64,000 nucleotides of DNA from Parcubacteria group bacterium GW2011_GWA2_43_11. GTDB lineage: Bacteria; Patescibacteriota; Minisyncoccia; Phycocordibacterales; UBA12088. The stretch's first letter is position 1. Each line of letters begins with the position of its first letter. Location: assembly GCA_000998805.1 (NCBI GenBank), contig LCFC01000004.1, positions 2,446-66,445 on the forward strand, written 5' to 3'. The notes under the pieces are model-generated. The model saw nothing but the letters and a program-made list of their open reading frames with translations. It had not been told where the DNA came from and did not search any database. Shown here piece by piece: positions 10,142-42,584 of the stretch. The position numbers and the translations under genes are program-made.

Positions 10142-10167
10142 TTATTACACTAAGAAACACCAACCTT

Positions 10168-10527: not shown

Positions 10528-10556
10528 AAGTTAAATGTTGAAAGTTAAAAGTTCAC

Positions 10557-10583
10557 AAACCAGCGTACGCTGGTTTGTGTTTT
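10557..10583 (+). terminator. Rho-independent terminator (AAACCAGCGTACGCTGGTTT + GTGTTTT)
   Basis: Perfect hairpin followed by a T-run. Confidence 0.6.
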
Positions 10584-24217: not shown

Positions 24218-24517
24218 AAGGACTTACGCAAACACGGATGCGACCTAATTTTCAAGGAGCGCAGCGACTATGAAAATGAAAATGCCCTTGTGGTACAGCT
24301 CGACTTGTCCGCCGTAGCTTTTGCAGAGGTGGAAGCAAGTTTTTTTAGAAACTACGCCCCCATACTGAAGTCGTGCACGTTCCCGTATTACGTCAGGACT
24401 TACGCAAACGGATGAAGTTCAAGGCACCCAAGCAAAATAGAGCGAGTTGTATGAACAATACTACGAGAGATATTTTGTGCTGGGCAACGATGAAATACGC
24501 TGTTTGTGTATGTCCTA
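24218..24517. mobile_element. Two adjacent MITE-like copies, F1 at 24218–24394 and F2 at 24395–24517. The end of F2 provides the TAG stop of the downstream 2-oxoacid oxidoreductase beta gene.
   Basis: aAGGACTTACGCAAACacGG… and …CAGGACTTACGCAAACGG…CTGTTTGTGTATGTCCTA. The internal core of F2 matches copy A. Confidence 0.7.
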
Positions 24518-25294: not shown

Positions 25295-25299
25295 AATAT

Positions 25300-27021
25300 T
25301 TATATAAACTTATTTATTTCCTCTGCGAGTTGAGTAGGGGTAAATGGTTGTGCGTCGTACTTGAGTACTTTGTTGTGAATTTCAATACTCGTTTTTTCAC
25401 GTATGAGTGCCGCGAGCTGTGCGGTGTGGTTGGCTTCCACATCTATTATTACTCGCGCGCCACTAAGCTCAGCTTTGATACGATCTGCATCAAACGGCTC
25501 CATCCAGAGTACTTGCACGAGCTTGGCAGGAGATTTTAGCTGCTTACGTGCTTCAAGCATAGCACCTTTTGTTGAGCCCCAGAAGACTATCACTACATCG
25601 CTCCATTCATCCCCGTATGTCTTTACCGTCGGGAACCATGCGAAATCTTGGTACAGCCCATTAAGCTTACGAAAACGTTTATCTTGCATTGTTTGTACAT
25701 CGGCCTTGTCTTCAACAGCCTCACCCTCTTCGTTGTGTTCATAGCTTGTTGCTTTTACTACCACGTTTGCCTTACCAGGGAATGCAAGAGGAGATATTCC
25801 ATCTTCAGTTATCTTGTATCGTACATAGTGTGAGCCGACAGGGACAGCACGCTTACCAAAGTCAGGTCCTTTGCTCTTGGTATCGAGCGTCACTGATTTG
25901 TAACTCTCAGAAAGATGTTTGTCAGAGAGTATAACAGCAGGGAGTTGGTACTTCCACGCAAGATTGAGTGCATCAGCTGCACACTCGAAACATTCCTCCA
26001 CGTCTCCTGGAGCTATCACTAATCGAGGAAACTCTCCATGTCCTGCGTGTAAGATAAACTGCAAGTCCCCTTGGCTTGTGTGGGTCGCTACTCCTGTAGC
26101 AGGCCCCATACGCATAGCAACCATGATAGCGATAGGGATTTCGGAAACGCCAGCGAGTGAGAAGGTCTCTTGCATGAGTGCGAATCCACCGTTTGCGGTA
26201 CCCACTGCTGTACGCTTACCCGCATAGCTCATGCCGAGTGCCATATTGAGTACGGCTATTTCATCTTCCGGGTGTACCACTTTAAGACCTGTTTTCTTTG
26301 CCATTTTTGCTAGAAACTGAAGTGTGGAGGTAGAAGGAGTCATAGGGTAGCCAACGTACGCTTCAAGTCCGGCAGCCAAGAAACCTTTTGCTATGGCTTT
26401 GTTACCATCCATTACTTCACCAATCTCGCCGTGTTCGGTAGGGATGTCGCACACATCTTGAGGGACACCAAGCTTTTTGACATGGTTGTATCCTTTCTCC
26501 ACAAGCGCAACATTCATTTCTGAGCCAACGTTTGCGTACACCTTGTCTGCGAGCATCTTGAGCTGATTCAAAGGGATACCAAGCGTGTACCCGTATGCAC
26601 CAAAGGCACTTGAAGTACGTGCTACTTGAGGTGCTTTTAATTCCTCAGCTATTTTTTTCATGGGGAGAGGAATGAGGTCGATTCCAAGGTCCTTAACTTC
26701 AGAAAGGTATGCCTCTTCCACAAATACACGAGCACCTTCTTTAAGTGAGTGTTGATGCACGAGTACCGACTCTGCATTGACAGCTACCAACACATCAAGC
26801 TCTTTGTAGTCTGCATATACGGGCTCAATGCTGTAGCTTATGCGGGCAAAGTTGTGACCTCCTCGTATGAGAGAAGGGTAATCAAATGAGGAGAATGTTT
26901 TGTAGCCAAGCTCGTTTAGGAGTTCTGAAAAGTTGATGCCTGCCTCGCGGGCACCATCACCTGCAGCACCGCCGATAGCTATTGTTTTTATACCGTTAGA
27001 GGTTGTATTTGAATCAGTCAT
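25300..27021 (-). CDS. 2-oxoacid:ferredoxin oxidoreductase alpha subunit (fused gamma-alpha)
   Basis: N-terminal gamma-like IAIGGAAGDG…LIRGGH, then the alpha domain GYPMTPSTS…; 573 aa. Confidence 0.9.
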   Translation of the reverse strand: MTDSNTTSNGIKTIAIGGAAGDGAREAGINFSELLNELGYKTFSSFDYPSLIRGGHNFARISYSIEPVYADYKELDVLVAVNAESVLVHQHSLKEGARVFVEEAYLSEVKDLGIDLIPLPMKKIAEELKAPQVARTSSAFGAYGYTLGIPLNQLKMLADKVYANVGSEMNVALVEKGYNHVKKLGVPQDVCDIPTEHGEIGEVMDGNKAIAKGFLAAGLEAYVGYPMTPSTSTLQFLAKMAKKTGLKVVHPEDEIAVLNMALGMSYAGKRTAVGTANGGFALMQETFSLAGVSEIPIAIMVAMRMGPATGVATHTSQGDLQFILHAGHGEFPRLVIAPGDVEECFECAADALNLAWKYQLPAVILSDKHLSESYKSVTLDTKSKGPDFGKRAVPVGSHYVRYKITEDGISPLAFPGKANVVVKATSYEHNEEGEAVEDKADVQTMQDKRFRKLNGLYQDFAWFPTVKTYGDEWSDVVIVFWGSTKGAMLEARKQLKSPAKLVQVLWMEPFDADRIKAELSGARVIIDVEANHTAQLAALIREKTSIEIHNKVLKYDAQPFTPTQLAEEINKFI

Positions 27022-27882: not shown

Positions 27883-30114
27883 ATGATTAGTAAACATATT
27901 CAATGTTACGTATGTATTCTGAGCATTGCTTTGGGATCAGTGCTTTTTGCAGGAGAAGCACACGCAGTTACCTGCACTGCAGGAGCGCTTTCACAAGTCT
28001 TCTTTGGACAATCAGGAGCAAATGTCTCAAACCTACAGCAGTGCCTTATCGATGCAGGGTACAGTATCCCTGCGGGTGCTACGGGTTATTACGGTACACA
28101 AACTCAAACTGCAGTGAAGGCATTTTATCTCGCACGACTGAACTTGGGTGATTGGGATGGTAGATCGGTAGGTCCACAAGGTCGTGCAGCATTGACTAGC
28201 GCTGTAAGGACAAATCCTACGCAAACGCGTGCAAAACCAACAGGCGAAGCGAAGTCAAAAGAGTATGCGTACAAAAAAGTTTCTTCAGAAGCCGACCTTC
28301 TCACCTATATAGATGCTTCAGAGGGTATGACGTACGCAATGGGAACAGGATTACGAGCTACGTTTGCTGACGAAGATTCGGCAGTAGCACCCACACCAGC
28401 TATGGCACCAAATGCCGTTCCTTCAAGTGAAAAAACAGTCAGCGATCGTTTCAGTTCAACAAATGTACAAGTGTCAGGAATAGACGAGCCGGATATTGTG
28501 AAAACCGATGGTGAAAATATCTTTATATCGCCACAGTCGTACGGACCTTACTTTAGAGGTGGTGTAACGACTGTAGATGCCGTTGTTGCAAATGACATGA
28601 TGCCAGTCCCAAACTATGTCGACCCTACTACCAAGGTGGTAGATGCGTTTCCACCCTCTGACCTTAGTGTTATTTCAGAAGATGAGATAAAGGAAAACGG
28701 AGAAATGTTGCTTATCAGTGACACGTTACTTGTTTTTACCTATACCAGCATCGTAGCGTATGATGTAACTAACCCGGAAAGTCCAAAGAAAAAATGGGAC
28801 AGAAAGTACGGTGAGAATGTACAGCTCGTCACCGCGCGAGCAAATGATGGAGTAGTGTACCTGGTAACTTCTACCTATATATATCGAGATAGACCATGCC
28901 CTGTTGTACCACTCATGGGTGCGGGTATGGTGTTGCCATGTACGAGAATATGGGTACCGGAACATCTTGAACAATTAAATACAAGCTATTCAATATTGGC
29001 TCTCAATCCAAAAGATGGAAAGATAAATAAGGAAATTACATTCGCAGGGAAGGCAGATAATACTGTGGTTGCAATGTTTGAAGACAATATATACGTGACT
29101 CATCAGGAATCTTCCGGAAGTCGTGCGGTAGCGCTCGATTTCTTTGCGTCCGGGCTTACTGATTTGTTGTCAGATAGTGTACGTGCACGTATAGCAACCA
29201 TCGTGAGTTACGACATAAGCGACCCCTCAAAGTTAGAAGAAATCTCAAATCTTATTGAGAACGAGCAAGCAAAAATGAACAATAATGAAGCACTCCGATT
29301 TGAAACAGAACTAGCAAACCGTTTTGTGAGCTATCAAGCTCTTCATGCTCGCGACATTGACAGAACCGTCGTTACTCGTATTGCAGTAGACACACTCACT
29401 ATTGCAGAGACGAAGTCTATTCCGGGACATTTACTTAATCAGTTCTCACTCGATGAGTACAACGGGTACCTTCGCGTAGCGGTAACTGTCGGAGAGCGAT
29501 GGGGAGGAGGTACGCAAGTAAATGATGTATACGTACTTAGCAGCGCACTCGAAATTGTTGGAAGTGTTCTCGACCTCGGTTTTACTGAGCAAGTGTACTC
29601 CGCTCGCTTTATTGGAGACCGAGGCTACGTAGTGACCTTCCGACAGACAGATCCATTCTATGTGTTTGACCTCACTGACCCGCTACATCCTAAGATGACA
29701 GGAGAACTCAAGATACCAGGGTATTCAAGCTACCTTGAAGCGATAGACCATAACACAGTGCTCGGTGTGGGGCGAGATGGAGGAAATGTAAAACTCTCGC
29801 TCTTTGACGTGAGTAACCCTGCGCTACCCGTAGAACGTGCAGTGTATACACTTAAGGAAAGTTGGAGTGAAGTTGAGAATAACCACCATGCGTTTCTACG
29901 AGATAGTGAGTACAAAGTTGTCTTTATCCCAGCAAGTAACGGAGGGTATGTCATTTCGTATGACAATAACAAACTCAGTCTTAAAGCCGCTGTGAGTGGC
30001 TATGACGTACGTCGTGCAGTGTTTATAGACCAGTACTTCTACGTTGTCGGCGATGAGAAAATCACAGTATTGAACGAGAACACCTGGAAAGAGGAAAAGA
30101 CACTTTCGTTGTAA
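27883..30114 (+). CDS. Secreted protein with an N-terminal peptidoglycan-binding-like domain and a large beta-rich C-terminal region
   Basis: Signal peptide MISKHIQCYVCILSIALGSVLFAGEAHA and a PGBD-like LQQCLIDAGYSIPAGATGYYGTQTQTAVKAFY. Confidence 0.7.
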   Translation: MISKHIQCYVCILSIALGSVLFAGEAHAVTCTAGALSQVFFGQSGANVSNLQQCLIDAGYSIPAGATGYYGTQTQTAVKAFYLARLNLGDWDGRSVGPQGRAALTSAVRTNPTQTRAKPTGEAKSKEYAYKKVSSEADLLTYIDASEGMTYAMGTGLRATFADEDSAVAPTPAMAPNAVPSSEKTVSDRFSSTNVQVSGIDEPDIVKTDGENIFISPQSYGPYFRGGVTTVDAVVANDMMPVPNYVDPTTKVVDAFPPSDLSVISEDEIKENGEMLLISDTLLVFTYTSIVAYDVTNPESPKKKWDRKYGENVQLVTARANDGVVYLVTSTYIYRDRPCPVVPLMGAGMVLPCTRIWVPEHLEQLNTSYSILALNPKDGKINKEITFAGKADNTVVAMFEDNIYVTHQESSGSRAVALDFFASGLTDLLSDSVRARIATIVSYDISDPSKLEEISNLIENEQAKMNNNEALRFETELANRFVSYQALHARDIDRTVVTRIAVDTLTIAETKSIPGHLLNQFSLDEYNGYLRVAVTVGERWGGGTQVNDVYVLSSALEIVGSVLDLGFTEQVYSARFIGDRGYVVTFRQTDPFYVFDLTDPLHPKMTGELKIPGYSSYLEAIDHNTVLGVGRDGGNVKLSLFDVSNPALPVERAVYTLKESWSEVENNHHAFLRDSEYKVVFIPASNGGYVISYDNNKLSLKAAVSGYDVRRAVFIDQYFYVVGDEKITVLNENTWKEEKTLSL

Positions 30115-30331: not shown

Positions 30332-32887
30332 ATGAAACAAAAAGAATACTTAGAGTTGGAAAAAAGAACCTTTGAAATTCTCCGTCGGAGAGTCTTAACT
30401 GGTGAGTTTAAGTTTAAAAAAATATTCTTATTTCTCTGTTTTGTTATGGGAGGGTTTGTTTTTGGCGTGGGAGAAGCGAGTGCGGAAGGTATTTATATAA
30501 GTAATGCTGGTGCTGGTGATGGATCTTCTTGTGGCCAAGCTCGTTCTGTTTCATGGTTTAACGCCTCTGCTAATTGGGGTTCTGGGGATAATAAAATCAG
30601 CGATAACGATACCGTTTATTTGTGCGGAACTATAACAAGCAGTTCGTTGAGGATGGTTGCATATGGCTCTGTTGGAAATCCCTATACCATAACCTCAGCT
30701 CCTGGCCAAACAGCTATTATTGATGGTCAAAACATTCTCGATAGGGGAATTTCAGCCTACTCCTCTGGTAGCGGAGAGGTTATACTATCCAACTTAGAAA
30801 TACGCAATATTGCTGGTACTGGTATAGAAGCCAGACCCGGTGTGACAATGAAAATTGATAATGTGACTGTGAGAAACGTTTCTCAAAACTGTATAGGATT
30901 GAGTGGTAATGGTTCGTATGTTAAGAATTCAACTTTAATCGGATGTAAAAACAATGGAATAAATGGTGCCATGTTATCTAATGGACTTATTGATAACAAC
31001 ATCATTACCCTTTCAGGGACATATAATGACGGAATCACATTACACGATGGGACTGGTTCAAACAATGTTATATCAAACAACACTGTTTCTGGGGTAATAG
31101 AAGAAAATGCAATTGATATCCTACCTGGTTATTCCAATACCACTATATTTGGAAATGATCTTAGCGGAGCTACTCTTTATGTTATAGGAAGTGGTGGCGC
31201 AAATACTATTATTTACAGGAATTATATTCATGACTCTGCGAGAGGTGTATATCTAGCTGCTCCAGCGAGTGTGTATTATAACAAGCTAGTCAATTTGTCA
31301 GATGATACCTATGGTTCTGTGGGTGGTACAGGAGGACTCTACTTCACTACTGCTGATTCAAGTTTTGTGTATAACAATACCCTCGTGGAAGGTACTCAGG
31401 CTACAGGTAGAGCTATGGTGTACATAGATTCTGGGGTTGATAATGTGAAACTTAAAAATAATATTTTTGACGAGAATAAATTACAGACGACCATGTATAC
31501 GCTTGATAATCCGTCCATAGGCCTGCAAAGTGATTATAACAATTTCAACACGCCGCATACCAGATTAGTACAGAATGCGTCTACCGTCTATGCGAATCTT
31601 ACTGCCTGGAAAAATGCTGGATATGATGCAAAATCAATGTATGGTGAGCAATTGTTTTCAAATTTTAGTGCTAGGAATTTTAACCTTCTTCCAGGTTCTC
31701 CATTAATAGACGCCGGCACCTCTGTCGGTCTTACTACTGACTTTGCAGGTAATCCCATCTACGGTACTCCTGACATCGGTGCCTACGAATATCAACCCCC
31801 ACACACTATCGGAACTAGTAAAATAGACATTGGAGCTGGAGCAAGAATTTATGGAAACGGAAAATTTCGAGACATAGGAGCAACCAACTCTAATTTAGCT
31901 GATTTAACTATTACCCCTCAAAGCGGAAACTTCCAATCATTTGACACTGACGAAGTCCGTCCTGAATGGCTCGACGTCAAAAACATCACTTGGGAAGCAA
32001 CCACCAAACAATGGACCGAAAGCTCAAATAATTCAACTCTCACCAACACCCTCCACACTGTTGGAGACTTGGAGGCCAATAAATACTACAACGTTAGAGT
32101 AGATGGTACTTTAGGCTTGAAAATAACTGGAACCAACTGCACAGGTGGAATTTGCAAAGCAAACAGTAACGGAAAAATAGCGTTTACCTACACAGGAACA
32201 TACGGGGAGCATACCTTTAGAGTAGAATATGCTTATACTGCTATTCCTATTCCTACCGACACCACCGCTCCATCTGTACCATCTCTCACCGCAACCGCAG
32301 TCTCTTCTTCACAAATCAATCTCTCCTGGACTGCATCGACTGACAACGTCGGAGTAACAGGTTACAAGGTATACCGGAACGGTACATATCTAACAACAAC
32401 AACCTCCACTTCACACAACAGCACCGGTCTCACCGCTTCAACTGCCTACAGCTATCGAGTCTCTGCTGTCGACGCTGCCGGCAATGAATCCAGTCAATCT
32501 GTTGCAAAAAGTGCAACAACGCACGCAGGGACAGTGGAAACTGATGCGACACCACCTGCTGTACCATTGAATCTGATAACATTGGCAGTTTCTTCTTCAC
32601 AAATCAATCTCGCATGGACTGCTTCCACTGACAATGTCGGAGTAACAGGCTACAAGGTATACCGGAACGGTACTTACCTCACAACAACGACCTCCGCTTC
32701 GTATATCAATACCGGTCTCACAGCTTCGACCGCCTACAGTTATCGAGTCTCAGCTATCGACGCAGCAGGGAATGAGTCCAGTCAATCTACAGCGAAAAGT
32801 GCAACAACACAGGCAGGGACAGGAGGAACTGACACGACACCACCTGCGGCACCAACAGGATTTACTGCAGTGAGTGCGTCTGCGTAG
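30332..32887 (+). CDS. Cell-surface protein with a right-handed beta-helix (pectate-lyase-like) domain and tandem fibronectin type III repeats. It stops inside a third repeat.
   Basis: N-terminal TM anchor; NNIITLSGTYNDGITLHDGTGSNNVISNN beta-helix rungs; two Fn3 repeats (…SSSQINLSWTASTDNVGVTGYKVYRNGTYLTTTTS…). Confidence 0.75.
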   Translation: MKQKEYLELEKRTFEILRRRVLTGEFKFKKIFLFLCFVMGGFVFGVGEASAEGIYISNAGAGDGSSCGQARSVSWFNASANWGSGDNKISDNDTVYLCGTITSSSLRMVAYGSVGNPYTITSAPGQTAIIDGQNILDRGISAYSSGSGEVILSNLEIRNIAGTGIEARPGVTMKIDNVTVRNVSQNCIGLSGNGSYVKNSTLIGCKNNGINGAMLSNGLIDNNIITLSGTYNDGITLHDGTGSNNVISNNTVSGVIEENAIDILPGYSNTTIFGNDLSGATLYVIGSGGANTIIYRNYIHDSARGVYLAAPASVYYNKLVNLSDDTYGSVGGTGGLYFTTADSSFVYNNTLVEGTQATGRAMVYIDSGVDNVKLKNNIFDENKLQTTMYTLDNPSIGLQSDYNNFNTPHTRLVQNASTVYANLTAWKNAGYDAKSMYGEQLFSNFSARNFNLLPGSPLIDAGTSVGLTTDFAGNPIYGTPDIGAYEYQPPHTIGTSKIDIGAGARIYGNGKFRDIGATNSNLADLTITPQSGNFQSFDTDEVRPEWLDVKNITWEATTKQWTESSNNSTLTNTLHTVGDLEANKYYNVRVDGTLGLKITGTNCTGGICKANSNGKIAFTYTGTYGEHTFRVEYAYTAIPIPTDTTAPSVPSLTATAVSSSQINLSWTASTDNVGVTGYKVYRNGTYLTTTTSTSHNSTGLTASTAYSYRVSAVDAAGNESSQSVAKSATTHAGTVETDATPPAVPLNLITLAVSSSQINLAWTASTDNVGVTGYKVYRNGTYLTTTTSASYINTGLTASTAYSYRVSAIDAAGNESSQSTAKSATTQAGTGGTDTTPPAAPTGFTAVSASA
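32262..32830 (+). repeat. Tandem direct repeat of approximately 285 nt (2 units about 88% identical, plus the start of a third) encoding the Fn3 repeats
   Basis: Unit 1 at 32262–32546, unit 2 at 32547–32830, partial unit 3 at 32831–32884 ending in TAG. Confidence 0.8.
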
Positions 32888-32943
32888 ACATCAACGTTAC
32901 TGTAAATACGCAAGTAAAAAGTACCTCGCCTTCGTCGAACCTA

Positions 32944-32970
32944 AAACCCGCAAATGCGGGCTTTAGGTTT
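32944..32970 (+). terminator. Terminator hairpin AAACCCGCAAATGCGGGCTTT
   Basis: An 8-bp stem with a T-rich tail. Confidence 0.55.
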
Positions 32971-33067
32971 CCAATTTTCAACTTTAAACTCACGGCTCCT
33001 GAGGCTGTTTGTGGTTTTACCACGTGCTGTTCGTGCGTCGCATACTCTTGTTTGCTATCATAACAGG

Positions 33068-33571
33068 ATGACCATAGAAAATAAAATTAAAATAGGGTGG
33101 TTTGTGTTTTCCTGTTCGGAAGACAACACCATACTCTTTACTGAGCTTCTAAACGACCATTGGCAGGAATGGAAAAAGATTTTTGATTTCCGTCACGTAA
33201 AAGTCCTTAAAAAGAATAACATTTACGACGAATTTGATATTGCGTTTATTGAGGGAGCTATCGCAAGCCCTGAGCACGAAGAAAAGCTTAAAGACATCAG
33301 GAGTCGTAGTAAAAAAGTGGTAGCGGTGGGAGCATGTGCAGTGACGGGAGTGCCAGCAAGTCAGCGCAATACCTTTACCCCCGAGCAAAAAGAAGCGATA
33401 CAATTTCTCGTTGACCGTTTTGGCGCACTTCCCGAAGTAAAGAAAGTGGCGGATGTTGTGACGGTAGATGCTTCAGTCCCTGGATGCCCGATGAATGCTG
33501 ACATGTTTTTGAAAGCGGTGAACGGACTTGTGGCAGAGCTTCGGCCCGAGCTTGCTCAAGCACAATCTTAA
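33068..33571 (+). CDS. [NiFe]-hydrogenase small-subunit-like protein (group 3-type, short), with an atypical proximal cluster motif
   Basis: IKIGWFVFSCSED… (SCSE instead of CxxC), VAVGACAVTG, VPGCP. Confidence 0.65.
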   Translation: MTIENKIKIGWFVFSCSEDNTILFTELLNDHWQEWKKIFDFRHVKVLKKNNIYDEFDIAFIEGAIASPEHEEKLKDIRSRSKKVVAVGACAVTGVPASQRNTFTPEQKEAIQFLVDRFGALPEVKKVADVVTVDASVPGCPMNADMFLKAVNGLVAELRPELAQAQS

Positions 33572-33601
33572 CTATTACGAATTAAAATTCTACTACCGGG
33601 T

Positions 33602-35107
33602 ATGCACATGATAAACATAGAGCTGGAACACATCACTAAGATAGAAGGTGACGCGTCTATCAGTATCACTGTCGAAGATGGGAAGGCGACCAAGGTCCAC
33701 TTCATAACTGAAGAATACAAACGTTTCTTTACGGAAGCTCTGAAAGGTAAAAGTATTCTAGCGGTACCATCACACCTCTCACGCATCTGCGGTACGTGTT
33801 CAAACGCGCATGTGCTCGCTGCTATTGAAGCATGCGAGATGGCACTTGATATACAGCCTACCAAGCAAACAATGATGCTTCGCGCTCTTACCCTGCATGG
33901 ACTCACAATTCGCGACCATGCACTCCACCTCTACCTGTTCTGTATGCCGGACATCTATGGGAAGGATGCGTTTCTCGACTTTGATGAAAACGACCCCCAT
34001 GAGAACCAATTGCTACATGATGCGTTTGCGATAAAGAGCGCGGGGAACTTCCTCGCTACTATCATTGCAGGGAGGTCAATTCACGCGATGTTTCCGGCTA
34101 TTGGAGGCTTTATTAAGTATCCGGATGCCGAACAGGTCGCGCAAGCAATAGAAAAACTTGAAAGTGTACGCGAGGCTACGGTACGACTTGTCGCGGAGTT
34201 TGAGAAATGCACGTTTGCCTTTGACCGACATACCGACTACATGGCACTTTTGCCTGACGAAGGGTATGGATATATTAATGGCAGAATACGTACGAGTAAG
34301 GGTGAGGTGTATGACGAGAAGCTCTACCGTGAGCTTGTCGAGCACGTGGTATTGCCATACTCGCAAGCGAGCGCGTATCAGTACAAAGGAGACTCCTATA
34401 TGGTGGGTGCACTTGCTCGTATGAACATAGCTCGGGATAAGCTACATCCAAAGACGAAAGAATCGTGTCAATCCGCACTTGCACTGTTTCCCTCAACAAA
34501 CATTTTTCACAACAACTTGGCTCAGGCAATAGAAATTATGCATTCGGTTGATGAGAGTATCGACCTTCTTAAAAACAACCCTATAGTACAAGAAGATTTG
34601 GTTAAGATGCCATATCGAGAAGCCACAGGTATTGGGGTTATTGAGGCTCCTCGTGGAGCGCTCTACCATAAGATTCATGTAGGGGCGGACGGCAAGATAA
34701 TGGATGGAGAAGTCATCGTACCTACAGGGCAAAACCAGATAAATATTGAAGAGGACTGCGGACGACTCGTCGAAGATCTCGTGGCAAAAGGGGTGACTGA
34801 CGTGGAGGCGATAACTTTCGAGCTCGAAAAGCTCATCCGTGCCTATGACCCCTGTATGTCCTGCGCCGCAGCGCCAAATCGTGAAGAGCGAAACGAATTC
34901 TCAGAAGAACAACAAGAGATTATTGAAATGTATCAACAAGAGTTGCGAGACCTTGAAACGTGGAGAAATGAGCTTCTTCAGAAATGTGAAGCAAACGAGC
35001 GTGATGGAAAAGATTGTAATGCGCTACGGCAAGTAATAGAAGATGAGTATTTTGAAAAAGAATTGGAATTACGTCAAAGAGCCCACTATGCGGAGCACTC
35101 CGTATAG
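33602..35107 (+). CDS. [NiFe]-hydrogenase large-subunit-like protein with an unusual approximately 80-aa charged C-terminal extension
   Basis: N-terminal L1 motif RICGTCSNAH; C-terminal DPCMSCAAA (the L2 motif lacks the usual His/Arg), then APNREERNEF…HYAEHSV. Confidence 0.8.
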   Translation: MHMINIELEHITKIEGDASISITVEDGKATKVHFITEEYKRFFTEALKGKSILAVPSHLSRICGTCSNAHVLAAIEACEMALDIQPTKQTMMLRALTLHGLTIRDHALHLYLFCMPDIYGKDAFLDFDENDPHENQLLHDAFAIKSAGNFLATIIAGRSIHAMFPAIGGFIKYPDAEQVAQAIEKLESVREATVRLVAEFEKCTFAFDRHTDYMALLPDEGYGYINGRIRTSKGEVYDEKLYRELVEHVVLPYSQASAYQYKGDSYMVGALARMNIARDKLHPKTKESCQSALALFPSTNIFHNNLAQAIEIMHSVDESIDLLKNNPIVQEDLVKMPYREATGIGVIEAPRGALYHKIHVGADGKIMDGEVIVPTGQNQINIEEDCGRLVEDLVAKGVTDVEAITFELEKLIRAYDPCMSCAAAPNREERNEFSEEQQEIIEMYQQELRDLETWRNELLQKCEANERDGKDCNALRQVIEDEYFEKELELRQRAHYAEHSV

Positions 35108-35190
35108 TTGATTCAGTTCTATACTGAAGTCCTCTTAATTATAGCGAAATCCTTGATATGTCATGATAGGTTGGATGATTAAAAATAAGA

Positions 35191-35216
35191 ACAAGCCCCT
35201 TGTGAGAGGGGCTTGT
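35191..35216. terminator. Bidirectional terminator hairpin between convergent genes (ACAAGCCCCTTGTGAGAGGGGCTTGT)
   Basis: Perfect stem followed by GTCTGTTTTGTTT. Confidence 0.55.
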
Positions 35217-35227
35217 GTCTGTTTTGT

Positions 35228-35608
35228 TTAAGAGACTTCTTCCGGGAAGCTCCAAGCATCCGGACATTTGCAGAGGTCAAGATTCCAAAGATCATCTTCA
35301 CTGTGATCATGCGGGCATGCTTCCATACTTACGATTTTTCGACATACGTAACACTGCCAAAAGTACTCGACCGTACCTTCAGCGCAACCGAGCATTCTTT
35401 TCACCTCCTCATCAGGTAGCTGTTTCTTGTTTTTTCCGTCACCGAGCCATACTACGAGTCGATGATTCGGGTGAGGTGTGTACTCCTCCCACGGACGCAC
35501 TTCGGCGAATTCCTTCCGAAAAATTTCGGGCGGATTGTCTGTTGCATAAGTGCAAGATTTGCATGACTTGCATTCGGGAATCAGCAGGAAAGCGATAAGT
35601 TTAGACAT
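35228..35608 (-). CDS. Cysteine-rich small protein (10 Cys), hypothetical metal-binding
   Basis: ECKSCKSCTY…GCAEG…QCYVCRK…ACPHDH…CKCPD. Confidence 0.5.
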   Translation of the reverse strand: MSKLIAFLLIPECKSCKSCTYATDNPPEIFRKEFAEVRPWEEYTPHPNHRLVVWLGDGKNKKQLPDEEVKRMLGCAEGTVEYFWQCYVCRKIVSMEACPHDHSEDDLWNLDLCKCPDAWSFPEEVS

Positions 35609-35836
35609 TTTCTCCTCCAGGGTTTACTTAAACTAAATAAGTGCTTCAGTGAACACTCAGCCTGCAAGGTACTATACACTAAATTTTAAATAATACTAGA
35701 ATTAATTCTAGTATTATTTCTGAAAACAGATTGCTTGAGTTTATAAAAATTATATATTTTGATACAAGGTGATGTGTATTTATAACAAAAGGCAGAGCAA
35801 GTAAACTTTAGCTCTGCCCTAATCTTGCGAATACAG

Positions 35837-36253
35837 TTAGATATTCGATTTCCAATAACCACTCTCGTCTAACGCTTCCATGTACTCAGGGAAATCTATT
35901 GCAAATTTTTTATCTATTCTTGTTAAAGCAACGCATTGCCATGCAACACCTAAGAAACAGCAACTAATTGGAACAGTGAGCAGGAAAGATATACTTTCAA
36001 ATCTGAGTAGAAAGTAAGCGCCTACTAGGAGTGACAGAAGAGCTAAAACAAAACCCGTTCCCACTCTTAGGTCGCCAATGCTATCCCTGTATTCTTGATG
36101 GCACTTTTCTGCTGCCCTAACTTCTACGTCGCAAAATTTTCGCCCTATGAGCTCCATTGCTCCACATTCAGGACATTTTTTACGAACTGCTTCACCGCAT
36201 TCACTGCAGAAATTTCCAAGTTGTCCTTTGTGTTTACATGTATCAGTATTCAT
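35837..36253 (-). CDS. Zinc-ribbon membrane protein (N-terminal CxxC…CxxC, two TM helices)
   Basis: CKHKGQLGNFCSECGEAVRKKCPECG followed by hydrophobic segments. Confidence 0.55.
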   Translation of the reverse strand: MNTDTCKHKGQLGNFCSECGEAVRKKCPECGAMELIGRKFCDVEVRAAEKCHQEYRDSIGDLRVGTGFVLALLSLLVGAYFLLRFESISFLLTVPISCCFLGVAWQCVALTRIDKKFAIDFPEYMEALDESGYWKSNI

Positions 36254-36275
36254 TTTACCCCTCCATTTGGTATTT

Positions 36276-36412
36276 TTGACAAACAGCCATCTATGTATCT
36301 GTCATGCAAGATAGCGTTACATGTTACTTTGTCAATCAATATAATTGAAGTTTTGCCTTATTTTGGCTTAATATAGCAACTTTCCAATTTGATTTGTCAA
36401 ATATATTGACAG
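36276..36412. promoter_or_regulatory. Divergent control region with repeated TGACA/TGTCA half-sites, including a near-palindrome TTGTCAAATATATTGACAG
   Basis: Half-sites start at 36276, 36303, 36330 and 36390–36409. It sits immediately upstream of the TrmB-like regulator. Confidence 0.35.
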
Positions 36413-36439
36413 AATTATTGTTCATAGTACCATGAACTC

Positions 36440-37186
36440 ATGGACAAAGGACTTGAAAAGCTTCTGGAGGAAGTGGGTTTTACTCAAAAAGAAGCAAAAG
36501 TATATTTGGCTCTTTTAGAACTCAATATAGGCAATGTGAAAGAAATTGCCAGAATCACACAACTGAAAAGACCCATAATTTATGTAATTTTGGAAGGACT
36601 CATTAAAAGGGGGTATGCCAGTGAATCCCTGGAAACAAAAATAAACATCTATCAACCTACTGATCCTTCAGTAATACTGAACAAGCTGCGGAACAACTAT
36701 AAAAATTTTCATGAAATGCTTCCCATCTTTCGCTCGCTGGGGAATCGAGGTAAGAAGCGTCCGAAGATTACCTATCACGAAACTAAGGAAGGTATTGTTA
36801 GTGTTTGGGAAGATATGAATAATTTTCAAGATGTCTTTCTTATTTCCTCCTATCGAAGAATAGAGGATCATTTTCCAGGACTTCTTGATAAGTGGCTTCA
36901 TGAGATGAAAAAGGGGATTATAAATCCAGGCTTTCGTCAGCTTGTCTCAGACAACCCATTTAATATTCGTCTTGCTAAGAAGTTTATGTTTAGCAAAAAT
37001 CAGAGAGTACGTTTTTTGCCTGAACTGCGCAATTCTCACATGGATTTCGCCATTTTTGGAAATAAATTAGCCATCACATCCCTTGGTGAAGATCCATTTA
37101 TTGTGGCTATCGAATCAGAAGAATTGGTTCATTCCATAAAACCACTTTTTGAGCTGGCGTGGAAAAACGGGGAGCGTATTAAATAA
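36440..37186 (+). CDS. TrmB-family transcriptional regulator (N-terminal wHTH)
   Basis: LGFTQKEAKVYLALLELNIGNVKEIARITQLKRPIIYVILEGLIKRGY matches the TrmB N-terminal signature. Confidence 0.7.
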   Translation: MDKGLEKLLEEVGFTQKEAKVYLALLELNIGNVKEIARITQLKRPIIYVILEGLIKRGYASESLETKINIYQPTDPSVILNKLRNNYKNFHEMLPIFRSLGNRGKKRPKITYHETKEGIVSVWEDMNNFQDVFLISSYRRIEDHFPGLLDKWLHEMKKGIINPGFRQLVSDNPFNIRLAKKFMFSKNQRVRFLPELRNSHMDFAIFGNKLAITSLGEDPFIVAIESEELVHSIKPLFELAWKNGERIK

Positions 37187-37381
37187 CATGTGGTAGTAGA
37201 TTTATATTTTTTATACTGGAACCACTACTATTATCACGTGCATACGGAAACAATAATCTCGAATTTTGAAATCTCATCCGTGTACCCTTGTATGTCCTAT
37301 GCCGCGCACTTCCTGTAATAATGATACCGTCACACAAAGGCTGTGTGACGGTATTTTACTACTCTGGATTTTTCTACTCGT

Positions 37382-37789
37382 TCAACTTTCCACGTCCGTA
37401 GACATGGGATTGAGTTGTATTAGAGACCCTTCATCTACAAGCCAGTCCATGGCCACAGAGACAAACTTTTTAACAAGCTCGTTGTCTCCTGTGTTACTGC
37501 GCATTTCAATAGGGCGACCATCCTCGTAGAAATAAAGACCTATGGTGAAAGTTTGTCCTTTGGTGCGTCTCGGTTTGGTCTTTTTTTCCATGCTTTTGTG
37601 CTGCTGTATCCAGCGCGCAAGAGGCCAAAAGATGTCTAACCTGTTGTCAATTTCTGAAATACTGTTTTTTTCGATACACAGGTTGGATTTTACTTCTATG
37701 TTCTTTGGTGTGGTGCCGTCTCTCTCACACGAAACGTGAAGGAATATCGTGGTGTCTGCGGGTTTCGGTTGGATTCTCCAGTTTATCAT
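37382..37789 (-). CDS. Hypothetical protein
   Basis: 135-aa ORF. Confidence 0.45.
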   Translation of the reverse strand: MINWRIQPKPADTTIFLHVSCERDGTTPKNIEVKSNLCIEKNSISEIDNRLDIFWPLARWIQQHKSMEKKTKPRRTKGQTFTIGLYFYEDGRPIEMRSNTGDNELVKKFVSVAMDWLVDEGSLIQLNPMSTDVES

Positions 37790-37897
37790 TTCTTCACCTC
37801 TCTTGTGTTTGGAAAGCCAGTATCTTTCAGTGTATGTACCTATTTTCGATTGTACATGAGAAAAAAAAGAACACTAGTATACATACTATAATTAATA

Positions 37898-38284
37898 CTA
37901 GTATTCTATTGTTTGAGCTGTTTTTATGGCTTCAGTAAGGTCTGGAATGAGTCTATCTTCAGGTATACCTACTGGTATACCGATGATGTAAGTTGAATCT
38001 ATCTTGTCGAGTTTCTTGAGGAACTGCAGGTTGGTGTAGGCGTCGAAATCATGGCAGGTGACACGAGGAGTTTTGCTAAAGGCCTCGAGATTTTCAAATA
38101 CGGTAACCTTTTCTATTCCAATCACGGTGTCGATGATGATCATATCCTTTTCCACTCCCCATTCTTCGTTTGGGTCGAGTACGATAAAGGTGACTTCAGG
38201 AAACAATTCTCTCAGCTTCGGCAGAAGTCGTATGGGAAGTGAGTCCATTTCTATGTCAGGGTTACCAAAAATGTATACATGCAT
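37898..38284 (-). CDS. Hydrogenase maturation endopeptidase-like protein (HycI/HybD fold candidate)
   Basis: MHVYIFGNPDIEMDSLP…IIIDTVIG…CHDFDAY has acidic and His residues spaced like HybD E16/D62/H93. Confidence 0.5.
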   Translation of the reverse strand: MHVYIFGNPDIEMDSLPIRLLPKLRELFPEVTFIVLDPNEEWGVEKDMIIIDTVIGIEKVTVFENLEAFSKTPRVTCHDFDAYTNLQFLKKLDKIDSTYIIGIPVGIPEDRLIPDLTEAIKTAQTIEY

Positions 38285-38353
38285 AAATGCTAGTGTACAG
38301 ATAAAGCGCCGAGAGCAAAAGCAATCGGCGCTCTATAAAGAAAGGAAGAGCGG

Positions 38354-38896
38354 CTATAGCGGAAAATCCAGCGGGACAAGCTCGGCGATTTCGAAGTTGT
38401 GCACGAAAACTTTTATCCCAACCTCGACAGGGTATCCAAGGTGGTTGAAAATAACCACGGAAGGATTTTGTGGAAAGCGTGAACCAATCACCTTACCTCG
38501 ATGAAGAACATTTTTACCTTCTAGTTCCAGATCGGTCACTTCTACGAGAAAAACAGGTGTTTCTCCTTCTTGCACGTGTTGGTGTTCACTTTCCCAGTAG
38601 TAGTACATCTCTTCGATGGTGGGTTCCCGGCCATAGCGCGTTTCAAGGATTAAAAATGGTCGCGGAATAAATTTTCTGATGAATTCGTCACTTGGAAAAC
38701 GACCATACTCGATGATTGTTTTGAGTATGGGGTTATTCTCAAGCGGAAAATTCCTTTTCATGTTGTGCACGCAGGTAAAACCGTACAGTGCACATACTTG
38801 AGAGGGAGTTTCAGGAATGGGGACAGTGTGAATGAGTGTTGCTGGTTGGAAAACAGGGTCGGTATTGCATCGGGTGTCTGCTGAGTGAAGTATCAT
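38354..38896 (-). CDS. Hypothetical protein (180 aa), part of a four-gene minus-strand operon
   Basis: A 69-nt gap separates it from the upstream gene; no recognised motif. Confidence 0.5.
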   Translation of the reverse strand: MILHSADTRCNTDPVFQPATLIHTVPIPETPSQVCALYGFTCVHNMKRNFPLENNPILKTIIEYGRFPSDEFIRKFIPRPFLILETRYGREPTIEEMYYYWESEHQHVQEGETPVFLVEVTDLELEGKNVLHRGKVIGSRFPQNPSVVIFNHLGYPVEVGIKVFVHNFEIAELVPLDFPL

Positions 38897-38964
38897 AATT
38901 CCTCCTTTGACGTTTTTCTTTTCCTACAGGTATTTTCTTTTGTTATTATGTGGATATGTCTTGC

Positions 38965-39690
38965 TTAGTCAAGGTTTGCTATTTGTATAGCTTTCAATGT
39001 GTGGAATTTGAGCTGTTCTATTATTTTCTCAGTGAGTACCTCGCAAGGGATATCCCAATGAAGTGTAATGAATTGTCCAGGCTGTAGCATCTCGATGTCA
39101 TATTCAGCCTCAAGCCTACGCACTATCTTTTTTTCTATCGGTGCTCCAAGGAAAAACTTGTTGTTTAGAATCTGAAGTGGTTCATAAAGTAATGTGATGT
39201 TTGGACCACTCACTTCAATGACCTTGCCCCAGCTAATACGGCAGGAATCAATTGCGTTAATGGTTGCACTATCTGGAGAGCCCATTTTTTTTGGCACAGC
39301 AAGAACATGGTAGTTGTGATTGGGAAGAATACCTTTACTGATACGGTCTTCCAAAACTCGAAAAGTTTTTATAGGGAGCTTATCTTTCAGTCGCAAATCA
39401 TCAATAAAGTATTGATGTAGAGTGTTTTTATCCACACCGCTAAGGAGTTCATTGCCTATCCAGTACGCCTCGACGACGCGTGGGTCAAACGGGTCAGGTA
39501 TGTGGTTGCTCCGAGCTATGCGGTCAAGGTACGGGTACAGTGTTTCAAATCCTCGTAGAAGTTTTTGCAGACCAAAGTCGGTAAAGCCGTCGTTGAGGTA
39601 GTCCCAAATTTCTCTGTTTGCATCTGGGCCACAAAAGTGAAGCCTATTTGGCCCAAACGCATAGCGACTACAACGAAGTACTCCGTCCAT
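38965..39690 (-). CDS. Hypothetical protein (241 aa from the ATG at 39690; the ORF is open to a GTG at 39744). Its first 14 codons are duplicated at 41064–41104.
   Basis: MDGVLRCSRYAFGPNRLHFCGPD…. Confidence 0.55.
   Translation of the reverse strand: MDGVLRCSRYAFGPNRLHFCGPDANREIWDYLNDGFTDFGLQKLLRGFETLYPYLDRIARSNHIPDPFDPRVVEAYWIGNELLSGVDKNTLHQYFIDDLRLKDKLPIKTFRVLEDRISKGILPNHNYHVLAVPKKMGSPDSATINAIDSCRISWGKVIEVSGPNITLLYEPLQILNNKFFLGAPIEKKIVRRLEAEYDIEMLQPGQFITLHWDIPCEVLTEKIIEQLKFHTLKAIQIANLD
39650..39690. repeat. 41-bp direct repeat, copy 1 (GGCCCAAACGCATAGCGACTACAACGAAGTACTCCGTCCAT), which is the reverse complement of the first 41 nt of the 38965 gene
   Basis: Identical except for 1 nt to 41064–41104. 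Confidence 0.85.
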
Positions 39691-39753
39691 GATGTGAAGT
39701 ATACACAGTTTACTTAGAGAATGTGCGAACAAAATGACACACACATATTTTTA

Positions 39754-40971
39754 TTATTCAGTTGAACTTAGAATGTGTTGAATTTTTTCCCAACAATCTG
39801 AAGGTGTTGTTACTATCGAATGGATACGTTTTTTAATTATATTGTGTGCGTACTTTCTTTGTTTTGGGGTCAATGGAAGTGTCTTTCTGGTTGATGTTAG
39901 TAACATACTTTTCAATGTAGCAATTTCACCCTCACTATATTTGCCAAAATCAATTTTCTTTAGTTCCTCTTCGCTTAATATTTCTTTTAATCTTTTCCCT
40001 ATCATTAAAATATATCTAATATTTTTTATGGTATTTTCGGTTTCCTGTTGGGATCTTTCTCCTTCAAACTTAATGAGAGAATCATTAACAACTATTTCTA
40101 AAGTTGATTTTGCAGGAACATTGAAATCGCTACAGTATTTTTCAAAATCACGGGCAAGAGTATTACGTATATACGTATTAATTCGAAGTAATCTATTTTC
40201 TGTTATTTTTTTCTCACCTTTTTCGTATGAGCCATTATCAATATTTTTTATAATCTCAGAGATGTCAGCCCATGCATCTTTCCCCTGTTGATCAGACCGT
40301 AAGGCTTCTACATAATCCTTTTCTTCCAAAAGGATTTTTGTTGGATCATCTTCACACTTTTTTATTCTATCGTGAATTATGAGAACTTCTTCTTTTGAGA
40401 GCTTATCTATATTGAAACCAGGTAGTATAGAAGTGATGTATTCTATTTGTTCACGAGCATCCTCCATTCCTTCAACATCTTCTTCCAATAAACGTAGTGA
40501 TGTAAAAGATAGGTTAGAAAAAGTTTCATATCGATTTGAAATATCGGCTTCACTAAGTTTGTTTTCATAGTAGTCTCTCATTACTATTTCTTTAGGCATT
40601 TCGCCTTGTTGTTCACTCGCTTCTATAGTTGCGTCGCCTTGATCTTTTTGAAGTTCTTCGGTGTCACCGTTTTCAGCTTGAGAATCATTGGTACTAAAAA
40701 GATCTTTTTGAGCTTCAAGAGAAAGAATATTTCCTGATAAAGTGTGAATTTTATTGATATCCTTGTTTATAAACGCGTCGTCAAGTAGTTCTTTCGTGTA
40801 CGATATTCTGTCTTCAAGTAGCTCGCACACTTGTTCATTTGTTAAATCTAGTCGCAAACTATTCTCTTTTTCGCTATAGACGTACGAAGCATTTCTGCGT
40901 AGTAGTTCGGCGTCCGACAACACTCTTTCTCTTTGCATATCAACAATTTCCTGTATTTTTTCACCTTCCAT
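39754..40971 (-). CDS. Acidic, predicted alpha-helical hypothetical protein (405 aa) in an AT-rich cassette
   Basis: No TM helix and no recognised motif. Local GC is well below that of the flanks. Confidence 0.55.
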   Translation of the reverse strand: MEGEKIQEIVDMQRERVLSDAELLRRNASYVYSEKENSLRLDLTNEQVCELLEDRISYTKELLDDAFINKDINKIHTLSGNILSLEAQKDLFSTNDSQAENGDTEELQKDQGDATIEASEQQGEMPKEIVMRDYYENKLSEADISNRYETFSNLSFTSLRLLEEDVEGMEDAREQIEYITSILPGFNIDKLSKEEVLIIHDRIKKCEDDPTKILLEEKDYVEALRSDQQGKDAWADISEIIKNIDNGSYEKGEKKITENRLLRINTYIRNTLARDFEKYCSDFNVPAKSTLEIVVNDSLIKFEGERSQQETENTIKNIRYILMIGKRLKEILSEEELKKIDFGKYSEGEIATLKSMLLTSTRKTLPLTPKQRKYAHNIIKKRIHSIVTTPSDCWEKIQHILSSTE

Positions 40972-41107: not shown

Positions 41108-42031
41108 TTATCCAGTGACGGCTATCTTTGAAGTGGTAATAGTCCCTGAATGCCTCATAAAAAAGATGATACAGGTGGTGCCAAGTATCATGAGAAAACC
41201 AGAGAGCGCTTGAGTTTCAGTAAGTGTACCTGTTATGAAAACAGCGGTAAGAATATTAGTAACGAGTGTAGCGGGTACGAGAAGTGTAGCAACGTATGCC
41301 ACAGGTGCGTATTTCAGTGCAGAATACCACGTGACGACATAGCCAAGTAAAAAGATACCAGTAAGTGCTGTCCATAGGGTACTTATCGAGGTCATGTCAC
41401 CTAAACCTGACAAGCGCCCGGTCACCGCAAGAAAAATACCTAAGAATATTGAACCAAATAGCATTCGTCCACTCGCAACGATATGTACAGAAAGTTCACC
41501 TAACATTTTCTTAGCAAGAAGGTGTTCAACCGCCCAGAAAAGTGTTGCACTAAAGACAAGTAGCTCCCCCGTACTTCCTGTAAACCCTCCAAAGCCACCA
41601 ATGACAAGATTCGAAGCAAAGAGTAAAGAAACCCCTAACCATTGTAATGGAGAGAGTTGTTCACGTAGAAAAAATATAGCAAGAAGCGCAACCCAAATAA
41701 ACAGTGTTTTGTGTATCATTGCTCCGTTAATGGCAGGAATCATATTTAGTCCTGTAAAGAAGAGTCCAAAAGGTATCGCTCCGCCTATAAGACCGATAAG
41801 CACCAACTGCCCCCATTGTTTTTTTGAAATAGTACCTAGCTCCTCTTTTTTTGAGTACGCGAGGACAATACCAACCAAACATAATGCAACCATTGTATTT
41901 TTTAACCCAGCAAATAGGATAGGGTCTTGCAAAGAAGTAGCTGCAAATTTGTTAATAAAAATCGACACACCAGAAATACAAGCGGCGCTCAACGCAAGAA
42001 CGGTAGGATTTTTATAGAGTGATAGTTTCAT
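41108..42031 (-). CDS. EamA/DMT-superfamily transporter (10 TM helices)
   Basis: From MKLSLYKNPTVLALSAACISG; two EamA-like halves. The ORF is open to 42127. Confidence 0.75.
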   Translation of the reverse strand: MKLSLYKNPTVLALSAACISGVSIFINKFAATSLQDPILFAGLKNTMVALCLVGIVLAYSKKEELGTISKKQWGQLVLIGLIGGAIPFGLFFTGLNMIPAINGAMIHKTLFIWVALLAIFFLREQLSPLQWLGVSLLFASNLVIGGFGGFTGSTGELLVFSATLFWAVEHLLAKKMLGELSVHIVASGRMLFGSIFLGIFLAVTGRLSGLGDMTSISTLWTALTGIFLLGYVVTWYSALKYAPVAYVATLLVPATLVTNILTAVFITGTLTETQALSGFLMILGTTCIIFFMRHSGTITTSKIAVTG

Positions 42032-42092
42032 ATTTTTTATTGAGGATATATGCTTAAAGTATACACGTTTTACATTTTTTGTACGTCGGGCT

Positions 42093-42584
42093 GTGGTATA
42101 CTGCAAGATAGTGATTGACACCAACATTGAGAATAATTTCCGACATATTAGACCCTACTTAGGTATCTTACTTGTGGGAAGTATGGCGCTTGGGTTTGGA
42201 TTTATCGTTACGAGTGCTGCTAAGCAACTCGCACAAGCCATAGAACCCATTGCTTCTGATATTGAAGGTGCACTTACACTTGTGTCGTCTGAAACTGTGC
42301 GGTATGGAGATACGGTTTCGTATAAAGCAGCAGTCAACAATCTTACCAAGGGTACGTCGAACATATACATTACTACTGTGTGTTTTCAAGGAGAAACAAT
42401 GGTATTTCAAAAGAGCGTCACTCAAGGCATCTCAGTTCGTCTGTATGATCAAATGGTGAGTGAGTATGAATGGAATGGAGAAGACGCGTCTTGTACTGCT
42501 GCGTTATTGTATCGAACTTCTGCTTCAGATATTCACCAAGTTATTTTAGTTGATTCAGTGAGTTTTGATGTATTGGCTCGTTAG
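42093..42584 (+). CDS. Hypothetical secreted or membrane protein
   Basis: N-terminal hydrophobic segment LGILLVGSMALGFGFIVTSAA. Confidence 0.45.
   Translation: MVYCKIVIDTNIENNFRHIRPYLGILLVGSMALGFGFIVTSAAKQLAQAIEPIASDIEGALTLVSSETVRYGDTVSYKAAVNNLTKGTSNIYITTVCFQGETMVFQKSVTQGISVRLYDQMVSEYEWNGEDASCTAALLYRTSASDIHQVILVDSVSFDVLAR

Follow-up and report, generated by a model that had tools for sequence, protein, structure and literature searches.

Can a [NiFe]-hydrogenase dispense with the histidine that normally closes the C-terminal motif of its large subunit, and carry a long charged tail in its place? This question is raised by a pair of genes from Parcubacteria group bacterium GW2011_GWA2_43_11, which are located in a 64,000-nucleotide stretch of contig LCFC01000004.1 (hereafter the window, whose numbering is used throughout). 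The first gene, hydS (33068-33571, + strand), encodes a hyd2-type [NiFe]-hydrogenase small subunit of 167 aa (PF01058, E 5.6e-19). The second is an open reading frame (ORF) for a large subunit of 501 aa (33602-35107, + strand; PF00374, E 6.9e-30), and this exact sequence corresponds to GenBank KKS85956.1, found on one contig only. The large subunit carries RICGTCSNAH at residues 61-70, the L1 motif (RxCGxCxxxH) with two of the Ni-Fe cysteines, which is identical in 117 of 120 homologs. At its other end, as written in the window, it reads DPCMSCAAA (residues 416-424) followed by 78 charged residues. The large and small subunits recognised by the original prediction, made from the sequence alone, form a genuine and conserved [NiFe]-hydrogenase pair. 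Overall, it is likely that the locus represents the catalytic core of a cytosolic hydrogenase of the hyd2 type, a lineage of the Candidate Phyla Radiation (CPR) and DPANN related to group 3b, with a tail made by the assembly, maturation by a HybD-fold endopeptidase, and a single-cluster small subunit linked to a flavoprotein.

The affiliation of the pair is supported by several lines of comparison. In the PDB, the best match of the large subunit was the alpha subunit of Pyrococcus furiosus sulfhydrogenase I (SHI), a group 3b enzyme (E 3.6e-57, 197 bits), with scores of 153 bits for group 3c, 107-129 bits for group 3d and 92 bits for group 3a. Scores obtained with the NCBIfam models ShyA (241 bits, cut-off 700) and HydA (218 bits, cut-off 880) fell far below the equivalog cut-offs, and the protein is therefore a relative of these families and not an equivalog. 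Jaffe et al. (2020, BMC Biol 18:69; PMC7304191) described a CPR-specific clade, designated "hyd2", on a long branch beside group 3b, whose small subunit is consistently truncated (mean 164 aa) and whose beta and gamma genes are not co-located. These authors also noted PF07992 proteins ('fam013') and HypC-like proteins near hyd2, with a function termed "uncertain"; the electron partner was left open, the word 'maturation' is absent, and the maturation protease is not discussed (PMC7304191). The window pair is a member of this published clade, to which it was matched by host, subunit features and scores. Nothing essential distinguishes it from the CPR hyd2 enzymes (PMC7304191), its 167-aa small subunit being close to their mean length. 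The two-gene core with a truncated small subunit is an already known CPR hydrogenase type, and the motif variants regarded as novel by the original prediction largely belong to a described group: the subunit features match those of hyd2, although the clade lacks biochemical characterisation. The clade is widespread, with relatives found in 263 species-representative genomes, and the counts given below refer to the 80 best related loci in such genomes, the flanks of which were searched over 10 kb on each side; 34 of these loci have full flanks. All 80 belong to Patescibacteria.

Comparison with characterised enzymes delineates what is shared and what is missing. Like the heterotetrameric (alpha-beta-gamma-delta) sulfhydrogenases of group 3b (P. 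furiosus SHI and SHII, Thermococcus kodakarensis Hyh; PDB 9nez, 9e15, 5yxy), which provide the best large-subunit matches, the hyd2 enzyme is predicted to be cytosolic and to be synthesised with a cleavable C-terminal tail after DPCxxCxxH. The L1 motif differs, P. furiosus having RICSFCSAAH. Unlike these enzymes, the hydrogenase is not accompanied by HydB (Fe-S) and HydG (FAD/NADPH) subunits: no HydB/HydG-like beta or gamma genes were found in the window or in the related loci L001-L006 and L010, as the original prediction had stated for the immediate vicinity. In addition, the group 3b delta subunit (about 250-260 aa) holds proximal, medial and distal clusters, whereas the domain of about 100 aa bearing the last two is absent here. 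A small subunit with the proximal cluster only (about 180 aa) and a separate flavoprotein module are features of group 3d HoxHY and of the HydSL part of NiFe-HydABCSL (PDB 5xf9, 7t2r). The resemblance extends to one hyd2 relative, P0156, in which a NuoF-like FMN/N3 domain is fused to the small subunit. However, the large subunit resembles group 3d (HoxFUYH) less than group 3b (107-129 bits vs 197), HoxF and HoxU are lacking here, and the proposed diaphorase consists of one FAD protein akin to ferredoxin-NAD+ reductases. No Complex1_51K domain, indicative of NuoF-like proteins, occurred among the scanned window ORFs, and no such match was obtained in the 80 related loci; P0156, a distant relative, is the sole case with a NuoF-like domain.

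Of the 261 positions in the NCBIfam HydD model, the small subunit aligned to 4-160 only, and the domain bearing the medial and distal clusters is therefore absent. Its N-terminal region reads F-V-F-S-C-S-E-D-N-T. The original prediction had pointed to this SCSE segment as a non-canonical cluster motif with three cysteines and possibly a Glu or Asp, and the motif is real; the altered form is conserved across the hyd2 family. In an alignment of the query with 50%-identity representatives retrieved with the small subunit and at least 150 aa long, relatives of canonical length read x-C17-E-G-C20, with variants in which C20 is replaced by D or E, or C17 by D. In hyd2 small subunits, the corresponding region reads C16-[C/S]17-E18-D19-[N/S]20. 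The motif was recovered from 66 of the 80 loci, as CCEDN in 48, CCEDS in 17 and CSEDN in a single one. The family norm at the sequence level is a tandem Cys pair followed by Glu-Asp, and in the clade of the window protein the second Cys has been exchanged for Ser. This protein retains C16, C90 and C140, i.e. three Cys in the relevant motifs, and has Ser and Asn at the canonical C17 and C20. The small subunit would thus hold a proximal [4Fe-4S] cluster only, with C16, C90, C140 and a carboxylate, probably D19 (or E18), as ligands. Against this assignment, it must be said that the residue replacing the canonical Cys20 ligand was deduced from the alignment only. Since medial and distal clusters are lacking, the proximal cluster would have to exchange electrons directly with a docking partner.

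Two known systems offer parallels for such a cluster. In FrhG, one proximal-cluster Cys out of four gives way to Asp60, which ligates the [4Fe-4S] cluster (PMC3591093, PMC3930138). The likeness with this subunit of the F420-reducing hydrogenase (group 3a) lies in the use of Asp for Cys, and Asp60 may or may not share an alignment column with D19. Unlike the hyd2 small subunit, FrhG keeps a two-cluster ferredoxin domain and has FrhB/F420 as partners. NuoB/Nqo6 (PSST) of complex I, which is not a hydrogenase, has the same PF01058 fold, and the C-C-E-D order present in 65 of the 66 hyd2 motifs resembles its tandem Cys, a likeness drawn from sequence order. We take this pair to recall the two consecutive cysteines that ligate cluster N2 in Thermus thermophilus; in contrast to NuoB/Nqo6, the second Cys of the pair is a Ser in the window protein.

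The best candidate for the docking partner would be a FAD/NAD(P)H flavoprotein of the PF07992 family, resembling ferredoxin-NAD+ reductases, encoded at 18946-20232 (+ strand; Pfam E 9.5e-47). Most of the solved structures closest to it belong to ferredoxin-, rubredoxin- and putidaredoxin-NAD+ reductases. Homologs occur in 46 of the 80 loci (26 of the 34 whose flanks are complete), and without exception they lie upstream of the hydrogenase genes in the same orientation; the former count is a lower bound, the search having covered 10 kb per side when the copy in the window itself lies 13 kb away. This distance results from the insertion of two large genes between hydS and the neighbouring 2-oxoacid:ferredoxin oxidoreductase (OFOR). 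These genes, found in this lineage only, encode putative surface proteins (27883-30114 and 30332-32887, + strand), one with PG_binding and Beta_propel domains and the other with Beta_helix and fn3 repeats. The flavoprotein gene directly abuts hydS in 18 loci, and in the remaining 28 a divergent block of OFOR and acetyl-CoA synthetase genes separates the two. At locus L079, the PF07992 gene (8245-9483), hydS (9486-9986) and hydL (9986-11278) are effectively translationally coupled. The original prediction that no FAD subunit is adjacent is correct for the immediate neighbours, but overlooked this flavoprotein, which is conserved and often operonic in relatives. Gene fusions convey a similar message. 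In P0155 (L007, 8001-9503), a thioredoxin reductase (TrxR)-like FAD domain with CVNC is fused to a hyd2-type small subunit. The contig is archaeal (DPANN-like), with archaeal ribosomal and transcription genes, and the neighbours of P0155 include a hyd2 large subunit, a HycI-like gene, HypC and EamA. In P0156, the NuoF-like fusion partner is an FMN/4Fe-4S domain, and the cluster also contains a DUF6390 gene. Because of the PF07992 synteny and of these flavoprotein-small subunit fusions, an NAD(P)-linked three-component enzyme is favoured, and we lean towards an electron chain running NAD(P)H <-> FAD <-> proximal cluster <-> Ni-Fe <-> H2. The pair itself, although real, is then probably not strictly the two-subunit enzyme that had been proposed. 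Three considerations temper this scheme. With its gene 13 kb from hydS, the flavoprotein of the window could merely be a ferredoxin:NAD+ reductase serving OFOR; we know of no complex model or biochemistry for any hyd2 enzyme; and, unless H2 levels stay low, the evolution of H2 from NADH is disfavoured by thermodynamics.

The most serious alternative is a self-sufficient two-subunit enzyme that receives electrons straight from OFOR-reduced ferredoxin and evolves H2 without a flavoprotein. The setting lends it some credit. A two-subunit OFOR (24515-27021, - strand; Pfam POR, POR_N, TPP_enzyme_C and PFO_beta_C) is encoded by a beta gene (24515-25294) and a fused alpha/gamma gene (25300-27021), and an ADP-forming acetyl-CoA synthetase lies at 22085-24124 (- strand; ATP-grasp_5, Succ_CoA_lig and CoA_binding). 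The presence of both enzymes had been correctly noted by the original prediction, and they adjoin the hydrogenase in many Parcubacteria, OFOR being found divergently upstream of hydS in 44 of the 80 loci and the synthetase in 34. Transfer from ferredoxin to H2 is thermodynamically easy, and an exposed proximal cluster could dock a ferredoxin. However, no ferredoxin gene was found in the window, and none is a conserved member of the cluster. Strict and relaxed scans for Cys motifs found no CxxCxxCxxxC in the window, and no Fer4 Pfam match was obtained there, so that the nearby ferredoxin of the original prediction was not recovered. The gene meant was probably a Cys-rich ORF of 126 aa with an N-terminal CxxCxxC (35228-35608, - strand). 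It has no Pfam match at E 0.1, is absent from all 80 related loci and is kept only in the sister strain contig L009, where the distal Cys-Pro is lost; this ORF was discarded as a ferredoxin on account of the missing match and the lack of conservation. Furthermore, PF07992 genes are conserved to roughly the same extent as OFOR, and in 18 loci they form an operon with hydS that OFOR does not interrupt; in the fusions found in relatives, the small subunit is joined to TrxR-like or NuoF-like flavoproteins and not to ferredoxins. Ferredoxin-dependent H2 evolution, as first suggested for this pair, is possible but unlikely in this direct form, synteny and gene fusions favouring a flavoprotein partner. 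With the flavoprotein-linked enzyme retained as the preferred scheme, the position of the module beside OFOR and acetyl-CoA synthetase suggests a role in fermentative redox balancing.

The unusual C-terminus of the large subunit has a different explanation. The closest database protein, P0001, is 433 aa long, ends with DPCMSCAAHFLKVDLTIK, and is 100% identical to the window protein over 84% of the length of the latter. It is encoded on L001, a 54.9-kb contig from an independent ENA assembly of the same population. The window and L001 are 100% identical over 11,268 bp and 99.99% identical over 9,930 bp, and their sole structural difference is a segment of 105 bp. In L001, the intact large-subunit allele ends DPCMSCAAH-FLKVDLTIK*, with the His and a 9-aa tail. 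Within the 105 bp absent from the window lie the codons for this His and for the 9-aa tail that follows it, the stop codon, 21 bp of spacer, and codons 1-17 of the next gene. As 105 is a multiple of three, the window sequence reads through into codons 18-95 of a 95-aa gene, and the "charged tail" is the product of this read-through. The authentic part of the large subunit (33602-34869, + strand; PF00374) covers residues 1-422 and ends two bases into codon 423, reading to ...DPCMSCAA. The junction of the deletion, as compared with other assemblies of the same population, falls inside codon 423 (34869-34870), and the last base of this codon together with codons 18-95 of the separate, lineage-specific charged-protein gene (34870-35107, + strand) is fused in frame in this assembly only. 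The atypical C-terminal motif and the tail of about 80 aa in the original prediction are thus accounted for by an in-frame fusion private to this GenBank assembly. A clean 105-bp gap relative to L001, with nothing else changed, ruled out an alternative genetic code or a sequencing frameshift; slippage between direct repeats was likewise discarded, both GCGCC pentamers flanking the junction being kept and microhomology being limited to 1 nt.

Every one of the 120 top homologs retains the His of DPCxxCxxH, as do 79 of 80 genome loci, the 80th having yielded no motif, and the tails that follow it are mostly 7-12 aa long among related loci. Natural long C-terminal extensions of the large subunit, placed after a canonical His-FLKV site, were observed at L082, L061 and L091; one is His-rich (HSHDHGHSHDQNHPHNHG, recalling Ni-binding tracts) and two are Lys-rich, with 65-83 aa. 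The 95-aa charged protein is encoded by its own gene in L001 (11324-11611) and by a separate ORF in L009 and L010. It could be assigned to no family, has a C-x11-C pair and a coiled coil predicted by eye, and is kept in the sister strain and in L010.

Very probably, the Ala-for-His replacement and the 78-aa tail are an assembly artefact of the 2015 GenBank record. The 433-aa form is found on three contigs (JGI, ENA) and the 501-aa form on one NCBI contig. When JGI metagenome contigs were scanned for the 26-mer left of the junction, three were recovered and all were intact: L012 corresponds to the strain of the window, and L011 and L013 to a sister strain, which encodes the tail with different synonymous codons. 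A second 2015 GW2011 bin (L009; GCA_000998045.1, LCCS01000021.1, 1-760) has lost 19 bp from exactly the same nucleotide. This loss creates a stop directly after DPCMSCAA, and the product, KKS36764.1, ends early. L009 is itself a strain chimera, with its first 704 bp 99.86% identical to the strain of the window and the remainder from the sister strain (about 78% identity). Identity between the two co-occurring strains reaches 99% or more only in the final 300 bp or so of the gene, a segment whose end coincides exactly with the breakpoint. Assembly graphs are classically prone to wrong resolution where co-assembled strains share sequence. As a general parallel, local errors were found by Chen et al. 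to be prominent in IDBA-UD assemblies and to propagate wrong protein sequences (PMC7111523). Two facts count against an artefact: the call rests on assembled contigs and not on reads, and the deletion is in frame, a one-in-three chance.

If the 105-bp deletion were real, the large subunit of a subpopulation would be joined in frame to the 95-aa protein encoded downstream. Deprived of the C-terminal His and of the protease site, the product would be either a dead, pseudogenised hydrogenase or an enzyme folding without proteolytic maturation; probably, it would be non-maturable. In keeping with a genuine allele, the reading frame is preserved and the rest of the contig is clean, the loss at this very base in a second bin might mark a mutational hotspot, and natural tails reaching 83 aa exist in a few relatives, where they invariably follow the His. 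Nevertheless, this reading is improbable. The junction is restricted to a single GenBank contig when the left-flank scan returned intact alleles only; the shared breakpoint coincides with the end of the stretch that is identical between strains; L009 is visibly a chimera, which an assembly-graph error explains better than biology; and the His is invariant across the family. Under the artefact reading, which we retain, KKS85956.1 (501 aa, fused) and KKS36764.1 (cut at the same spot) are not usable for claims of hydrogenases that lack the His or bypass proteolysis, and both would be misread by motif-based surveys.

The intact large subunit would be produced as a normal 433-aa precursor ending DPCMSCAAH-FLKVDLTIK, from which a HybD-fold endopeptidase would remove the short tail after Ni-Fe insertion. 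A candidate for this step is encoded about 3 kb downstream of the hydrogenase (37898-38284, - strand; 128 aa) by a sequence-divergent member of the HybD/HycI fold. The window protein matched Pfam HycI weakly (E 0.006), and all seven of seven orthologs matched this family (best E 7.3e-6). Sequence-only searches of the PDB with phmmer and a profile found no relatives, and fold comparison was needed. With an AlphaFold2 model (pLDDT 88.5), the top three PDB matches were all HybD (T. kodakarensis 5ija, E 6.6e-6; Escherichia coli 2kml and 1cfz), followed by HycI (2e85). Residues D14, D52 and H78 are invariant; their order presumably recalls the HybD metal site, Glu16/Asp62/His93. Of the 80 loci, 62 contain the gene; among the 34 whose flanks are complete, 32 do. 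As judged from the modelled fold, a dedicated C-terminal maturation endopeptidase is encoded beside the hydrogenase, and this conserved cognate protease fits a precursor with a cleavable His-tail.

A second accessory protein belongs to the DUF6390 family (38965-39690, - strand; PF19927, E 6e-49) and is a candidate maturation chaperone. DUF6390 genes occur in 47 of the 80 loci, always downstream and with 46 of the 47 on the opposite strand; further copies were located at L002 (15422-16153), L004 (13519-14364) and L079 (11620-12351). The model (pLDDT 75) is unreliable for the N-terminal 43 residues and displays an OB-fold and a helix in its C-terminal part, the best PDB match of which was HypC (2z1c_B, prob 1.0, TM 0.67 normalised to the target). 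This part contains an invariant C150-R-I-S-W-G-x-V, which we assume to be comparable to the HypC N-terminal MC(L/I)xxPGxV with its essential N-terminal Cys. Another invariant motif, RCSRYAFGPNRLHxCGP, lies in the N-terminal region and is unplaced by the model. The structural resemblance makes DUF6390 a candidate new hydrogenase maturation factor; literature searches on DUF6390 and on hydrogenase maturation in Patescibacteria returned nothing useful. An EamA-family transporter (41108-42127, - strand; PF00892) completes the set; it was found in 26 of the 80 loci, has its gene in an adjacent position both in L079 and in L007, the archaeal locus, and forms an EamA-DUF6390 fused call in P0520. Poorly conserved proteins of 150-180 aa are encoded between the protease and DUF6390 genes in the window (38354-38896, - strand), L002 (14926-15378), L004 (12500-12964) and L007 (6581-7081). 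Several of them have an N-terminal 'Y-x-x-P-C-A' and a C-terminal 'G-D-x-V-x-x-H' resembling HypC, and these proteins may represent a second HypC-like accessory family. One observation sits uneasily with a functional maturation pathway: HypA-F genes are absent from the 64-kb window, where the only HypC-like domain is that inside DUF6390. The idea of a non-catalytic hydrogenase-like sensor or scaffold, raised by the original prediction and consistent with the truncated small subunit, the altered cluster motif and the lack of Hyp genes in the window, is scarcely credible, as 14 diverse members all retain the four Ni-Fe cysteines, the N-terminal Glu, the arginine of PRG and, at the processing site, the C-terminal His. 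Moreover, the genes for a dedicated protease for maturation and for a protein with a HypC-like domain are conserved in synteny, and no signalling partner such as a histidine kinase occurs in the cluster.

These data lead us to propose, tentatively and somewhat short of even confidence, that hyd2 is a distinct group 3 [NiFe]-hydrogenase subclass of CPR and DPANN and not a degenerate group 3b, a proposal that combines three properties. First, the single-cluster C-C-E-D small subunit might plug directly into interchangeable flavoproteins, namely an FNR-like (ferredoxin-NAD+ reductase-like) FAD protein in most Parcubacteria, a fused TrxR-like domain bearing a CxxC dithiol in one DPANN archaeon, and elsewhere a NuoF-like domain, likewise fused. 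Second, H2 might be linked to NAD(P)H or thiol/disulfide chemistry with three polypeptides. Third, the subclass might possess its own accessory set, consisting of the divergent HybD-like protease, DUF6390 with its HypC-like domain, and the EamA transporter. Beyond the published two-gene core, the present analysis corrects two GenBank proteins, defines the accessory gene set and proposes a three-component model with an FNR-like diaphorase. If true, such a minimal NAD(P)-linked [NiFe]-hydrogenase would bear on the redox balance and the host H2 exchange of ultra-small symbionts.

Other neighbours in the window include a SUF Fe-S assembly cluster and an EF-Tu/S10 ribosomal region. No Rfam family was detected within positions 32000-40000 of the window. 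An ORF of 405 aa (39754-40971) was considered as a hidden Hyp protein and ruled out, its product being charged, of low complexity, lineage-specific and without a family match. In one lineage of Parcubacteria, hydS and hydL are separated by genes for a 561-aa protein without family assignment and a 286-aa protein with a Bro-N domain (L005, 7283-9975; L006, 4661-7223); this insert could be a mobile element splitting the operon. Finally, metal-uptake genes were observed a few kb from the hyd2 clusters of some lineages, encoding Nramp in L002 (17034-18314) and ZnuA, ABC-3 and an ABC ATPase in L005 (16101-18695), and could be linked to the supply of Ni or Fe.

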